64,000 bases of DNA, taken from positions 3,455 to 67,454 of the forward strand of contig CAZGLL010000004.1 in NCBI GenBank assembly GCA_964526225.1, given 5' to 3'. A model generated the notes under the pieces. It saw only the letters and a list, made by a program, of their open reading frames with translations, ran no database searches and had not been told where the DNA came from. Position 1 is the stretch's first letter. Every line of letters starts with the position of its first letter. Shown here one piece after another: positions 35,404-39,360 of the stretch. The position numbers and the translations under genes are program-made. The DNA comes from an uncultured Desulfurococcales archaeon. GTDB taxonomy: Archaea; Thermoproteota; Thermoprotei_A; EX4484-217-1.

Positions 35404-36126
35404 TTAGTATAGGAATGTTTTTTCGAAATTTCTCAAAATAACATTTCTTACGGTTTCTTCATTAACTCCTTTAGCTTGGGCTATGTAGCTCACGGTATCT
35501 TTTACCATTAGGGGATTTAGCTTTAACCCTCTATATTCATACGGACCATCGCTTTCCGTAACCATAAACTCCAAATCTAAATATTCAATTACTTTCCTAT
35601 GTTTTTCCTGAATACGATATGCGGGATTTATTGAGATAAAGTATCCTGAAGACACTATTTCATCTATTAAGTCTAAAGGTCCAGTGTACCAGTGGAACAC
35701 GGCTTTCTCAATATCGTATTTTAGCAGTAATTCGTAAACTTCCCTCCATGTATTAACCGAATGAATGTTCATTGCTAATCCATATTCTTTAGCTAAGCTC
35801 AGAAACTCCGCAAAGAACATTCTTTGCTTATCTATTGTTTCAGGTGTAAATTTTCTATCCAGCCCTACTTCTCCTAAGCACCTTACACCATGGTTCACTA
35901 TGAGTTGTTCTATTGCGGAAATTTCAGTTAACGATGCTGTACCTACTTCCCAAGGATGTATGCCAATGCATGGAACGACACCCTTATACTTCTTGGAGAA
36001 CTCAGTAGTCTTCCTTGAGGACTCTACATCATCAGATACCGCAACAATAATAATGTCTTTAATGAATCCCGTAATTTCCTCATCACTGAATTCGTAAAGG
36101 TGACAATGAGAATCAACATATACCAT
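35404..36126 (-). CDS. tatD: TatD-family metal-dependent hydrolase
   Basis: 240 aa with N-terminal VDSHCHL and TatD-type downstream His/Glu/Asp ligands. Confidence 0.85.
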
Positions 36127-36267
36127 GTTATTTCCCTCTGGTTTTGTTTAAAGATTAATTCCGTTATAACAGCATTGCTAAGTTTTAAAATATCTTTGTT
36201 GTTAAAGGTTAATGGACTGTTTAAATGGTTATTTATCGAATTATTTAAATATCGTTTAAGTGCATGT

Positions 36268-37647
36268 ATGCGGTTAGGTGAAAATTTTGCGCCAATGGGC
36301 TTAAATGAAATAAAATCTCTCTTAAAACCCGAACTTATACCTGAAAAATGGTATAATATTCTCCCAGATTTACCGGAGCAACCACCGCCACCTTTGGATC
36401 CGCAAACACTAAAACCTATTAATCCGGCTAAACTTGAGCGTCTTTTCGCGAAGGAACTTGTTAAGCAAGAGATTTCCCAAGAAACCTATGTTAAAATACC
36501 TGAAGAAGTTAGGGTAGTATATGCTGAAATAGGTAGACCAACACCTCTAATAAGAGCCAGAAGGCTTGAAGAGGCACTGAATACACCAGCGAAAATATTT
36601 TTCAAGTATGAAGGGGTTACGCCAACAGGATCTCACAAGGTAAATACAGCATTAGCCCAAGTGTATTACAATAAACTTGAGGGGACAGAGAGAGTCATTA
36701 CTGAAACAGGAGCTGGACAATGGGGTAGCGCGTTATCGCTTGCTGGGGCTGTTTTCGAGGTTAAGGTAAGAGTTTATATGGTACGTAGTAGTTACGATCA
36801 AAAACCATACCGTAGAATACTAATGGAAATTTATGGAGCAGAAGTCTTTCCTAGTCCAAGTACGAATACTGAGGTTGGAAGGAGGATTCTTGAGGAAGAT
36901 CCGAAAAATCCCGGTAGCTTAGGGATAGCGATAAGCGAAGCAATAGAGGATGTTCTAAGGGATGAGAAAAGTAGGTATTGCTTAGGTAGCGTACTAAACC
37001 ACGTACTACTTCACCAAACAGTAATAGGTTTAGAAGCTAAATTGCAAATAGAGGAGCTTGGAGAATATCCAGACTACGTTATTGGATGCGTTGGCGGAGG
37101 GAGTAATTTTGCAGGACTTTCTTACCCGTTTATAAGAGATAGGTTAAAAGGTAAGTCTTCAACAGAGTTCATAGCTGTCGAACCAAAAGCATCACCTACA
37201 ATAACGCGTGGAGAATACAGATACGACTACGCCGATACAGGAGAGTTAACACCCTTACTTAAAATGCATACTGTAGGGCATAGATACAGGGTCCCTCCGA
37301 TACATGCCGGAGGACTAAGATATCATGGTGTAGCACCAACACTAAGCATCTTAGTGAATCATGGAATAGTAAAGCCCATAGCATATTATCAAAGAGAAGT
37401 TTTCGAAGCAGCAATTTACTTCGCAAAACATGAGGGAATAGTTCCAGCACCGGAATCAGCACATGCCGTTAAAGCGGCAATAGACTTAGCGAGAGAGTTA
37501 AAGAAGAAAAATGAAAAAGCAACAATTCTATTTAACTTAAGCGGCCATGGACTACTAGATCTTTCAGGATACCAGGAGTTCCTCGAAGGAAAATTGCCAA
37601 ACTACGAACCCGAAAAGATAGACTTATCATACCTACCAAAAATCTAA
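36268..37647 (+). CDS. trpB: Tryptophan synthase beta-subunit-like protein, TrpB2 type (stand-alone)
   Basis: The PLP-lysine motif is [12 protein letters not shown]. The N-terminus is TrpB2-like ([19 protein letters not shown]) and the size is ~455 aa. The ORF-track start at 36100 would add a 56-aa hydrophobic extension overlapping tatD, so the start is placed at ATG 36268 (alternative 36295). Confidence 0.85.
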
Positions 37648-37719: not shown

Positions 37720-37757
37720 TGGTAGCCGGGCGGGGATTCGAACCCCGGTCACGGGGG
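37720..37757 (-). tRNA. tRNA-Gln(CUG) 3' exon (positions 38-76 including the encoded CCA)
   Basis: See the parent feature. The T-loop UUCGAAU is flanked by CGGGG/CCCCG. Confidence 0.75.
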
Positions 37758-37835
37758 TTCTCCCCCACCGGACCGCCTAACCCCATTTAGGAAAAGGTTT
37801 TACTAAGTATTTAAAGCTTTATTTTAATAGTTGCC

Positions 37836-38653
37836 TTGCAATTAAAACATGGTATAGAGATGGTAAAGCAGTTGTCTGTAAAAGATTACGCACTAGGTTA
37901 TTTACTAGGGTTTACACTTGGTGATGGAACTATAACTATCGACTTAAAGAGATATGATTACAGAGTAAGATGGTTTATTAATCCTGTAGGAGAAGATGAC
38001 ATAGCATTGTTTATTAAGTCCTTAATTAAGTTACTAAAAAGGAATGCTAAGGTAAATGACTACATAGAACGGAATTCACATAAGAGAACAATATCTTTTC
38101 GTTCTAAGCACTTGATTATAATAATGCAGGGTCTTAAAACAAAGTTATTAAATGGTATGTTAAGCATAGATTGTTTAAGTACCTCTATGTTGATAGGGTT
38201 CCCCTCTTTATATGTTTTTATATGATTTGTCATCGGTTCATCCTTTCCCCCACGGTCGCTCGGGCTTCACCGGTCATTGCGGGGGCGTTCACCGCCGACC
38301 CCAGGCGACGGCACATCTACACATAACGTTCTCTCAATCAATAATATAAATATAACGCAACTAAAAAACATATACGATCATATAAAAAGTGCTACGGCAT
38401 ACTATGTGGTCTAATTGATTCTGATGGCAATATCGAACTCATGTACTATTATGAACCTTTAATCAGAATCACTACTACTAATAAAAGGCTATTTGTCCTT
38501 GTTAAGAACATAGTTAATAAACTCAAGATTGAGTATTTTTCATCTATGAACAAGAGAAGGTTTCTTATATTCATAAAACTTAGAAAGCTACCTTATATTA
38601 TGCCTTGCGTCAAGGTCTTAAGATTTATTCTAAATAATAGGAACGGCATATAA
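37836..38653 (+). pseudogene. Disrupted double-motif LAGLIDADG homing-endonuclease gene inside the tRNA-Gln intron, antisense to the tRNA
   Basis: Motif 1 is [16 protein letters not shown] in ORF 37836..38225 (frame 0). Motif 2 is LCGLIDSDGNIE in an open frame from 38345 to 38653 (frame +2). The two halves are separated by stop codons and a 2-nt frame shift spanning a GC-rich ~120-nt segment. A TATA-like ctttatttta lies ~20 nt upstream of 37836. Confidence 0.7.
38226..38344. other. GC-rich hairpin-forming insertion separating the two halves of the LAGLIDADG ORF
   Basis: The segment is locally ~65% GC in an AT-rich context. It has imperfect inverted arms (cggtcgctcggg ... cccaggcgacgg) and a TTCACCG direct repeat. 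No reading frame is maintained across it. Confidence 0.45.
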
Positions 38654-38716
38654 AACATTTACTTAATGGTAAAGTTGCAGAAGAAAAAGAGGAGGGGTTA
38701 GGCGGTCCGGCGCGGG

Positions 38717-38754
38717 CCAGAGCCCCGCATCCTTGACCGCTAGACGACCCGGCT
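38717..38754 (-). tRNA. tRNA-Gln(CUG) 5' exon (positions 1-37)
   Basis: See the parent feature. Acceptor AGCCGGG pairs with CCCGGCU of the 3' exon. Confidence 0.75.
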
Positions 38755-38856
38755 TCTTTTTAGTCAGAAAATAACTATGTGTATAGGGGTTTTAAGGGTT
38801 TCTTTAAAATCTAAATAAGTTAAGCTTATATTATATGTGTTACATGTATTACAGAG

Positions 38857-39360
38857 GTGACAGAGGTGTCTGAAAATAAGGGAAAGCCTGAAGAAGAGGA
38901 TAAGGGTAAGAAGAAAACTGTTACGATTAGGAATATTGATGAAGAACTCTACGCTAAAGCATCGGCTCTCGCAAAGAGCATAGGAGAATCTGTAGGAGAA
39001 ATAATCAATGAAGCCCTTAGAGCGTTCCTAGCGATAGCTGAAGGATCAATAGGGTTTGCTCAGAAAGTAAAGGAGGGCGTCGAAGCAACAATGAAAACGA
39101 CCACTGTAAGCGACCTAGAAGAATTAACAATAACGAGTAAGGATTTAGAGGAAATTGAAGGAAGAGTAAGGTTCAGGAACATTAAGAAACTTGTAGTGGA
39201 CAACAGTGTAACATGGGAACTTTTCGATAAGAAAATCGCGTCAATAGTTTTCGTAGACAAAGTAGTGCTTCCTAAACACATACCTAAGCTTAAAGCGCTC
39301 TCAAAAATGAAGCTTGTAAAGAAAATTGAACAATTTAAAGAGGAAGAAGAGGGTAGTTGA
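38857..39360 (+). CDS. Acidic hypothetical protein with an N-terminal ribbon-helix-helix-like segment
   Basis: 167 aa. TVTIRNIDEELYAKASALAKSIGESVGEIINEALRAFL resembles the RHH/CopG beta-strand-helix-helix pattern. The rest is Glu/Lys-rich. Confidence 0.35.
   Translation: MTEVSENKGKPEEEDKGKKKTVTIRNIDEELYAKASALAKSIGESVGEIINEALRAFLAIAEGSIGFAQKVKEGVEATMKTTTVSDLEELTITSKDLEEIEGRVRFRNIKKLVVDNSVTWELFDKKIASIVFVDKVVLPKHIPKLKALSKMKLVKKIEQFKEEEEGS

Follow-up and report, generated by a model that had tools for sequence, protein, structure and literature searches.

Whether two tRNA-like segments lying almost one kilobase apart in an archaeal genome make up one working gene, and what came to lie between them, is the question raised by a locus in a 64-kb stretch of DNA from an uncultured Desulfurococcales archaeon (contig CAZGLL010000004.1, positions 3,455 to 67,454; hereafter the window, in which coordinates are counted from the first letter). 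Here we analyzed this locus computationally and conclude, with a probability of roughly three in four, that it is a working tRNA-Gln(CUG) gene interrupted between canonical positions 37 and 38 by a decaying mobile element, consisting of a bulge-helix-bulge (BHB) intron and a LAGLIDADG homing endonuclease gene. This reading draws on the anatomy and conservation of the locus, on covariation, on the fold of the endonuclease family and on the polymorphism of the site among genomes. Related genomes, which range from those with no insert to those with fully separated half-genes, also suggest a way in which introns and split genes came into being among archaeal tRNA genes.

The 5' exon (positions 1-37; 38754..38717, minus strand; AGCCGGGTCGTCTAGCGGTCAAGGATGCGGGGCTCTGG) is identical to the 5' half of intronless orthologues, and the 3' exon (positions 38-73 plus an encoded CCA; 37757..37720, minus strand; CCCCCGTGACCGGGGTTCGAATCCCCGCCCGGCTACCA) lies collinear with it on the same strand, the two 38-nt segments being 959 nt apart. 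When joined they give a 76-nt tRNA-Gln(CTG), which ARAGORN folds into a regular cloverleaf with A1:U72, A73 and the encoded CCA, and exon 1 plus exon 2 correspond exactly to ...GGGGCTCTGGCCCCCGTGACC... of at least 51 intronless orthologues. Both ARAGORN and the orthologue comparison thus indicate that excision of the insert leaves a tRNA-Gln equal to that of the intronless genes, and the spliced junction is predicted to read ...GGGGCUCUGG|CCCCCGUGACC... (...CUCUGG|CCCCCG... in the RNA). The intervening sequence (37758..38716, minus strand; 959 nt at canonical position 37/38) has homologous inserts of 673-1204 nt in the loci that we number L004-L010. Because an identical 1301-nt region is present in three independent metagenome assemblies, an assembly artefact is ruled out. 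The samples ERZ1742239, ERZ27248349 and JGI 3300014911 contain this sequence. Two candidate TATA boxes, GATTTTAAAGAAA and CCCTTAAAACC, lie upstream of the 5' exon (38788..38811, minus strand), and motifs comparable to them are also found 5' of the 5' halves at other loci.

Standard annotation does not reveal this gene. Default ARAGORN reported zero tRNAs and Rfam at gathering thresholds zero RNA genes in the 64-kb window, and a permissive Rfam search gave partial matches only, to the T-arm and acceptor end contained in the 3' exon. A search tolerant of long introns, which the original prediction had proposed as a check, did find the gene when ARAGORN was run with -i0,1500 (c[37720,38754], with an intron of 959 nt) but set the junction 2 nt off, as a result of which the locus was named 'Pyl CTA'. 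Default tRNA finders therefore miss or misname interrupted genes of this kind, routine annotation is affected, and the genomes of this group will consequently appear to be without a tRNA-Gln.

At the junction the transcript would form the motif recognized in archaeal splicing. On its 5' side (38714..38722, minus strand) C32-U35 (38722..38719) are followed by the bulge G36 G37^c (38718..38716) and by the outer-helix CC (38715..38714), and on its 3' side (37757..37765, minus strand) the outer-helix GG (37765..37764) is followed by the central-helix GGAG (37763..37760) and the bulge a a^C38 (37759..37757). The central helix consists of the 4 bp between C32-U35 (CUCU) and GGAG at intron positions -6..-3; it separates two 3-nt bulges on opposite strands, with the predicted splice sites falling after the second nucleotide of each bulge. 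Helix h is the 5-bp anticodon stem, and h' is made of 2 bp (CC/GG), a small internal loop and then 17 bp, the last being a perfect duplex between the 5' arm CCGGACCGCCUAACCCC (38694..38710, minus strand) and the 3' arm GGGGUUAGGCGGUCCGG (37768..37784, minus strand). Both arms emerged from the inverted-repeat search, which extends them to 23 nt with 91% complementarity, and from covariation.

The covariation analysis used an alignment of the junction and helix arms from 13 lineages, anchored by hand on the helix core, in which standard pairs occupied 96.4% of the cells overall and 94.6% of those in the long helix, and 13 of the 17 long-helix pairs were altered on both sides. None of 500 shuffles reached the observed pairing values, and slid controls paired in 38-57% of cases. 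The hBHBh' geometry is kept in 13 inserts of CUG-type genes and four of UUG-type genes, and the pairing in its central helix changes together with the anticodon, with G(-5) as the partner of C34 in 13/13 CUG-type inserts and A(-5) as that of U34 in three of the four UUG-type inserts. The presence of this architecture, with compensatory changes, in 12 lineages other than that of the window rules out chance. The original prediction had described a complete tRNA-Gln(CUG) re-formed by two exons, a junction at 37/38, a canonical BHB with a CUCU/GGAG helix and the bulges GG^c and aa^C, and a 17-bp perfect duplex; the tRNA proved correct to the base, the orthologues place the junction where it had been set, and BHB and duplex are as claimed. 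We propose that in the RNA the flanks of the insert pair through the 17-bp G+C-rich helix and so offer an hBHBh' structure to EndA, which would cut after G37 and before C38, and that RtcB would then join the exons.

These structural data bear on two other accounts of the insert. Integration of a virus or plasmid into the tRNA gene by site-specific recombination would agree with the common use of tRNA genes as integration sites in Crenarchaeota (Yoshihisa 2014 review; Sugahara 2012). We consider it very improbable, since the insert holds no integrase or recombinase, no attachment segment is duplicated (the halves abut at 37/38 without overlap) and the insert ends form a BHB and a helix for which an integration scar would have no need. 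Even harder to credit is the view that the endonuclease gene described below belongs to a self-splicing intron of group I or II: LAGLIDADG group I introns do occur in archaeal ribosomal RNA (rRNA) genes (Nawrocki et al. 2018), and group I introns with LAGLIDADG genes are also reported from bacterial tRNA genes (PMC13011429), but no Rfam intron family matched the insert at E <= 10, the insert outside the helix arms and a 200-nt RNA block is A+T-rich coding sequence, and a canonical, covarying BHB is present.

What then occupies the 959 nt? On the plus strand, antisense to the tRNA, lie the two parts of a LAGLIDADG endonuclease gene. The N-terminal part (37860..38195; alternative TTG start at 37836) contains the first LAGLIDADG motif, and the C-terminal part (38396..38653), in another frame and with no start codon before its motif, contains the second, ILCGLIDSDGN, within a LAGLIDADG_3 domain. 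The N-terminal frame reads into an inserted block and meets a stop codon at 38223-38225. A protein search retrieved intact relatives of 185-205 aa with 50-65% identity, which are continuous from ...S(M/T)LI to GILCGLIDSDG; at this very point, where the alignment breaks (...SMLI|GILCG...), the window gene is longer by exactly 200 nt and shifts frame. Both motifs, each with its terminal conserved acidic residue, are invariant in the family alignment, and Pfam LAGLIDADG_3 was matched by all seven aligned members. An AlphaFold model of one intact homologue, P0001, had a predicted local distance difference test score (pLDDT) of 84.6 and a predicted template modelling score (pTM) of 0.85, and its best PDB matches in Foldseek were to I-DmoI (E = 4e-9, TM 0.60-0.70), with I-Tsp061I also among the top matches. 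As modelled for this homologue, and not for the window copy, the fold is the tandem alpha-beta-beta-alpha-beta-beta-alpha arrangement of the I-DmoI type. The family profile found zero matches among PDB sequences, so I-DmoI was identified by fold comparison only.

The ratio of nonsynonymous to synonymous substitution rates (dN/dS) among the relatives was 0.08-0.22, with synonymous sites near saturation. The window gene is a recent pseudogene, as its two halves are free of stop codons and show a dN/dS of about 0.1 against the relatives. Its interruption by a 200-nt element would have made the insert immobile, and since these 200 nt are a later addition, the ancestral insert was about 760 nt long. 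The original prediction had placed an endonuclease gene in the intron; a LAGLIDADG gene is indeed present, but on the opposite strand and inactivated here by the 200-nt insertion and frameshift. In the DNA step of our proposed mechanism the I-DmoI-like enzyme, encoded antisense in the insert, would cut an intronless tRNA-Gln(CUG) gene at the anticodon stem-loop, and repair of the break would copy the insert in. The expected target is the intronless allele, GGATGCGGGGCTCTGGCCCCCGTGACCGG. Homing of this kind is suggested indirectly, by the nature of the enzyme family, by the presence and absence of the insert at the site, by purifying selection and by a sister clade of endonucleases residing in tRNA-Gln(UUG). 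A T5 run follows on the plus strand at 38757-38761, just past the antisense of the tRNA 5' end. An endonuclease mRNA would therefore probably extend across the 5' exon and its helix arm in antisense orientation up to this run, and an antisense interplay between this mRNA and the 5' half could occur.

The arrangement forms a family, found in at least nine lineages besides that of the window. Every intact homologue with a readable contig lies antisense inside tRNA-Gln(CUG) at 37/38, flanked by identical exons. Intact homologues of 185-205 aa occur in this arrangement in L004, L005, L006, L009 and L010, the inserts measuring 769 nt in L004 (NCBI metagenome-assembled genome (MAG) GCA_053988875.1), 765 nt in L005, L007 and L008, which are syntenic with the window, 774 nt in L006, 673 nt in L010 and 1204 nt in L009. 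More distant endonucleases (31-37% identity), retrieved with the family profile, lay antisense at 37/38 of tRNA-Gln(UUG) in 4/4 examined cases, in inserts of 674-745 nt (L181, L183, L185, L186), and they form a sister clade. In these four tRNA genes ARAGORN sets the junction at the wrong point and consequently reports Leu, Ser or Pro. In L009, about 490 nt of extra sequence separate an internal TATA box from the endonuclease start; it gave no match to the pattern of the 200-nt element considered next and is possibly another small insertion.

The block that breaks the window endonuclease gene (38196..38395, minus strand) has a G+C content of 0.54-0.57 against about 0.3 in its surroundings, with 25-nt inverted repeats at its flanks. 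Its most conserved stretch, used as a pattern, matched 49 metagenome loci, about 30 of them true relatives. Relatives from hydrothermal metagenomes stand at tnpB 3' ends. In the copies that we call type B the block stands at the 3' end of a 415-aa open reading frame (ORF) with a Cas12f1-like TNB domain (PF07282, E = 6.9e-16) and a zinc-finger/RuvC tail, CPRCG...CRNCGFIADRDTIGAINIY, two features that identify the ORF as TnpB; tblastn found TnpB homologues upstream of 13 copies. Type A copies, among them that of the window, have no TnpB, differ in their flanks each time and carry a TATA-like box 20-24 nt 5' of the conserved RNA. All copies share the right boundary ...CATATAAAGAGG(C/G)GAACCC. Judged by current knowledge of IS200/IS605 elements, on which Karvelis and colleagues and Altae-Tran and colleagues reportedly worked in 2021, the block comprises the omega-RNA scaffold and the right end of such a transposon. 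As the 200-nt window copy contains no ORF and zero TnpB homologues were found in the 64-kb window, it is a non-autonomous miniature derivative; its recent arrival inactivated the endonuclease gene, which would leave the insert of this genome immobile.

By homology to tnpB 3' ends, the element runs on the minus strand from a left end, GTAGCACTTTTTATATGA (38395..38378), through a second TATA (38356..38342) and a G+C-rich omega-RNA scaffold (about 38317..38229) to a right end, ...CATATAAAGAGGGGAACCC (38214..38196). The flank at the right end, TATCAACATAGAGGTACTTA (38176..38195, minus strand), would, by analogy with TnpB systems, serve as the omega-RNA guide and matches the uninterrupted endonuclease gene. 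The left flanks of miniature copies end in GCC or GCT (ATGCC, TTGCC, AAGCC, GTGCC, TAGCT), which may be the target motif of the element. The stem closing the conserved loop appears compensatory by eye (CCCCCGC/GUGGGGG, CCUCCCC/GGGGAGG, CCCACCC/GGGUGGG, CCCGCCC/GGGCGGG); RNAalifold on a mixed alignment of types A and B gave no useful consensus and did not recover it, and single-sequence folds of the block were no better than shuffles (z = -1.4 and -0.95). Two other identities of the block were rejected. For a nested BHB intron in the endonuclease mRNA no bulge-helix-bulge was found at any frame-restoring junction on either strand, and for an H/ACA, C/D or other Rfam RNA there was no Rfam match at E <= 10.

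To place the window among its relatives, the 5'-exon 29-mer was scanned against one genome per species, which yielded at least 120 loci in Desulfurococcales, Sulfolobales, Acidilobaceae, Pyrodictiaceae, Ignisphaera and similar groups, with L082 (Pyrobaculum) and L088 (a Thermoproteales MAG) as exceptions among the matches listed. Position 37/38 is intronless at 51 or more of these loci, holds a short intron of 14-35 nt at no fewer than 47, an insert of 58-221 nt at four or more and one of 755-1942 nt at three or more; at least 13 loci have the 5' half with a G+C-rich leader and no 3' half in the 1.5-7.7 kb available, and the state of at least two was not assigned. The same site therefore occurs empty, with a short intron, with the helix arms only, with a long insert whose endonuclease gene is alive or dead, with two host genes between the halves, and as a 5' half alone. 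The 58-nt intron of L070 consists of the two helix arms and a 12-nt loop, and the 35-nt intron of L024 retains CCCGACCGCC...GGTCGG; both have the appearance of long inserts shortened by internal deletion. In L085 the endonuclease gene has stop codons, and in L014 (an Ignisphaera MAG) no endonuclease remnant is recognisable in the 761-nt A+T-rich insert, although the helix arms, a TATA within the insert and, behind the 5' arm, a T5 run are present. In L053 (2232-4173, an Acidilobaceae MAG) the halves stand 1942 nt apart with their complementary arms preserved, and the spacer holds two ordinary antisense genes, for a PfkB kinase and a DeoC/LacD aldolase.

The loci with a 5' half alone (L029, L034, L036, L044 from Ignicoccus pacificus CP006868, L050, L054, L061, L084, L086, L099, L102, L111 and L121) have a good upstream TATA and a leader of 12-17 nt, and are candidate trans-spliced split tRNA-Gln(CUG) genes, for which the expected 3'-half sequence is ...GGGGTTCGAATCCCCGCCCGGCTACCA. 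In L034 (1577-1632), and also in L029, L086, L111 and L020, the leader is directly followed by a box C/D small RNA (UGAUGA...CUGA...UGAUG...CUGA; Rfam sR20 E = 2.5e-4 and sR3 E = 0.0018, both below the gathering score), which suggests that tRNA half and guide RNA are co-transcribed at those loci. Taken together, the states of the site fit the course expected of a homing element, which enters a site, degenerates and disappears again, with split genes as a further outcome, and these comparative data agree with the suggestion in the original prediction that the locus is an intermediate on the way to a split tRNA. The gene neighbourhood around the site, ribbon-helix-helix (RHH)-LysE-HD-MPG synthase, is syntenic in L005 and L007; in the window the RHH/VapB-like gene (weak Pfam matches) occupies 38857-39360 on the plus strand, and a PALP-domain, TrpB2-like enzyme is encoded at 36100-37647 on the plus strand. 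L113 was considered as a syntenic empty site and set aside, as it shares only the TrpB2-like neighbour and is therefore weak evidence of this kind.

The next question is whether the two halves are joined from one transcript or from two. In a pure cis intron, a 1,035-nt precursor would start from the promoter upstream of 38754, EndA and RtcB would excise the 959 nt, and any TATA inside the insert would serve the endonuclease alone. The window insert, however, contains a motif on the tRNA strand, ATAAAGCTTTAAATAC (37807..37822, minus strand), which ends 22 nt upstream of the 3' arm and has, as ATAAAG(A/C)TTTAAAT, the form of a crenarchaeal B recognition element (BRE) plus TATA box, the A-rich BRE-like bases standing on its tRNA-sense side. 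In the window, L004, L005, L006, L085, L009, L014, L185 and L186 a spacing of 20-25 nt separates the motif from the 3' arm downstream of it, and similar motifs are found at varying distance (29-39 nt) in inserts that carry no endonuclease, such as L089 (127 nt), L123 (221 nt), L129 and L053, as well as in UUG-type inserts. Ten of 17 inserts have the motif within a 21-nt search interval, where 0.074 per insert would be expected from background; relatedness of the lineages inflates the nominal P of 6e-8. Its retention where no endonuclease gene is adjacent (L089, L123, L014, L009) speaks against the pure cis account; in L009 the endonuclease starts about 500 nt away, so the motif there is not the endonuclease promoter. 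We regard the motif as the probable promoter of the 3' half, possibly acting in both directions and thus also for the endonuclease gene.

Oligo-T runs terminate archaeal transcription. Runs of T5 or longer are not depleted on the tRNA-sense strand of the inserts, and the window insert has four of them (T5-T6), one of which (38684..38688, minus strand) comes 5 nt after the 5' arm and may terminate the 5' half; a T run follows the 5' arm also in L014, L123 and L129, and several other lineages have only a pyrimidine-rich tract there. These runs, the two ordinary genes between the halves of L053 and the 5' half alone in at least 13 related genomes are further difficulties for a single precursor. 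We accordingly propose that transcription of the 3' half begins, for the most part, near 37784, driven by a promoter that lies within the insert and belongs to this half.

Several points weigh against the picture drawn so far. What is said of the mature tRNA, of where transcription starts and of where the RNA is cleaved is predicted from the DNA, promoter and terminator being assigned by their motifs, and the homing activity of the endonuclease family is likewise deduced. In the covariation analysis the helix core served as a hand-set anchor of the alignment, and the lineages entering the promoter and covariation statistics are related, so that the P values are overstated. The TATA is near-palindromic, and on the opposite strand the endonuclease gene starts 25-47 nt downstream of it, for which reason its conservation could be due solely to a role as endonuclease promoter. 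T5 runs are missing from the tRNA-sense strand of L004, L006 and L085, as would suit read-through, and in Aeropyrum pernix a low-abundance read-through precursor was seen by reverse transcription-PCR (RT-PCR; PMC3218864). These observations, with the collinearity of the halves on one strand, give a pure cis intron an appreciable probability, though one well short of even. In view of the near-palindromic TATA and of the three inserts lacking T5 runs, we favor separate transcription of the halves by only a modest degree, and treat cis read-through as a minor or alternative route; a strictly cis-spliced 'intron' with a single precursor may not be the main one.

A further objection concerns function itself. 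Our view takes in 64 kb of this genome, and a second intact tRNA-Gln(CUG) gene may lie elsewhere, in which case the locus could be a dead remnant, a disrupted gene whose tRNA is supplied by another copy. Some relatives do have two tRNA-Gln(CUG) copies (L074/L100 on one contig; L013/L103 in one MAG), and the endonuclease gene is already broken here. Nevertheless we judge this improbable: the exons are 100% identical to functional-looking orthologues while the synonymous sites of the endonuclease are saturated, the BHB and the long helix have been kept by compensatory changes in 13 lineages, and the syntenic relatives L005 and L007 retain the same interrupted gene. A working, interrupted tRNA-Gln(CUG) gene hence remains the reading that we adopt.

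For two decades there has been debate over where archaeal tRNA introns and split tRNA genes come from, the competing ideas being half-genes of ancient origin, insertion at a late stage, and a defence against viruses that integrate. According to Chan et al. 2011 (PMC3218864), splitting in Desulfurococcales is recent and due to an unknown tRNA-specific agent, and a 2023 meeting summary describes mobile archaeal tRNA introns as transposable elements, naming no mechanism. A conserved LAGLIDADG homing endonuclease, under selection and specific for tRNA-Gln, puts a concrete agent into this gap. We tentatively suggest, at slightly less than even odds, that endonuclease-bearing BHB inserts are the agent that created canonical 37/38 introns and split tRNA genes in Crenarchaeota, the window representing a transitional stage from cis to trans. 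In the series that we envisage, an I-DmoI-like enzyme would home into an intronless tRNA gene; the insert would supply the long helix and a promoter able to drive the 3' half as well; the endonuclease would then decay, in the window by way of the TnpB-family miniature element; and either internal deletion would leave short introns or rearrangement would separate the halves and give a trans-spliced gene. The question of origin is now open to feasible experiments.

How the locus compares with known systems remains to be set out. Archaeal rRNA genes are known to harbour BHB introns that contain endonuclease genes (Nawrocki et al. 2018), and for archaeal tRNA introns a median length of 15 nt and a range of 11-129 nt have been reported (Chan et al. 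2011, PMC3218864). In reviews of archaeal tRNA introns and disrupted tRNA genes the term 'homing' is absent or used for other systems only. The original prediction held that a ~1-kb archaeal tRNA intron with an endonuclease gene was undescribed, and we too found no endonuclease-bearing BHB intron of an archaeal tRNA gene in the open-access literature, an absence that is not proof; none of the published split tRNAs found there is a tRNA-Gln(CUG).

The rRNA introns, with the enzymes I-DmoI (Desulfurococcus mobilis 23S rRNA), I-Tsp061I, I-PorI and I-ApeI, resemble the window insert in being BHB inserts, removed by EndA in the rRNA and predicted to be so here, that encode a monomeric two-domain LAGLIDADG enzyme, in belonging to the same host group (Desulfurococcales and relatives) and in including I-DmoI, to which the homologue model is closest. 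In those introns the endonuclease reading frame is in sense orientation. Here, by contrast, the host gene encodes a tRNA and the endonuclease is antisense to the host RNA, so that it needs a promoter of its own; the insert brings a helix of 14-25 bp and a probable internal tRNA-oriented promoter, and the enzyme family has no sequence-level match to any PDB protein. With the bacterial tRNA group I introns of cyanobacteria and Patescibacteria (PMC13011429) the insert shares the form of an endonuclease-bearing mobile intron in the anticodon loop, but those are self-splicing ribozymes, whereas the window insert has no ribozyme and would need the host splicing endonuclease. A euryarchaeal tRNA-Trp intron housing a box C/D RNA (mentioned in PMC3218864) is likewise a 37/38 intron containing another gene; it is about 100 nt long with a sense guide RNA, unlike the antisense protein gene and transposon-derived RNA element of the window. 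As to that element, the block shares its conserved, putatively structured RNA and exact right end (...AAAGAGGCGAACCC) with the tnpB-linked copies of the IS200/IS605 TnpB and omega-RNA system, from which it differs in having no tnpB and in its own TATA-like boxes.

Closest on the side of split genes is the tRNA-Asp(GUC) of A. pernix, for which northern blot and RT-PCR showed that the adjacent halves are transcribed separately; a promoter within its spacer, oriented like the tRNA, starts transcription 20-25 nt before that spacer ends, and the stem has 14 bp (Chan et al. 2011, PMC3218864). Like the window gene it belongs to Desulfurococcales, is split at 37/38 into adjacent halves, shows an hBHBh' motif that continues into a G+C-rich stem, of 14 bp as against 17 bp in the window, and has a BRE/TATA inside the spacer on the tRNA strand, where the window has a BRE/TATA-like motif; the 3' arm of the window begins 27 nt before the 3' end of the spacer. 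Its spacer, however, is 121 nt long and gene-free, with the splitting agent unknown, whereas that of the window, 959 nt now and about 760 nt ancestrally, holds the probable agent, a homing endonuclease gene; the tRNA here is for Gln, and separate transcription, experimental in A. pernix, is deduced for the window. In the split tRNAs of Nanoarchaeum equitans, Caldivirga maquilingensis and Staphylothermus, complementary G+C-rich leaders unite the halves and a BHB forms at the junction, as would the 17-bp covarying helix of the window, at least 13 relatives of which have only the 5' half and its leader; the window halves differ in being collinear and only 959 nt apart. What seems new, then, is that a mobile BHB intron of the rRNA type occupies tRNA genes, where its endonuclease gene is antisense, a probable promoter inside it faces in the tRNA direction and a connection to split tRNA genes becomes visible.

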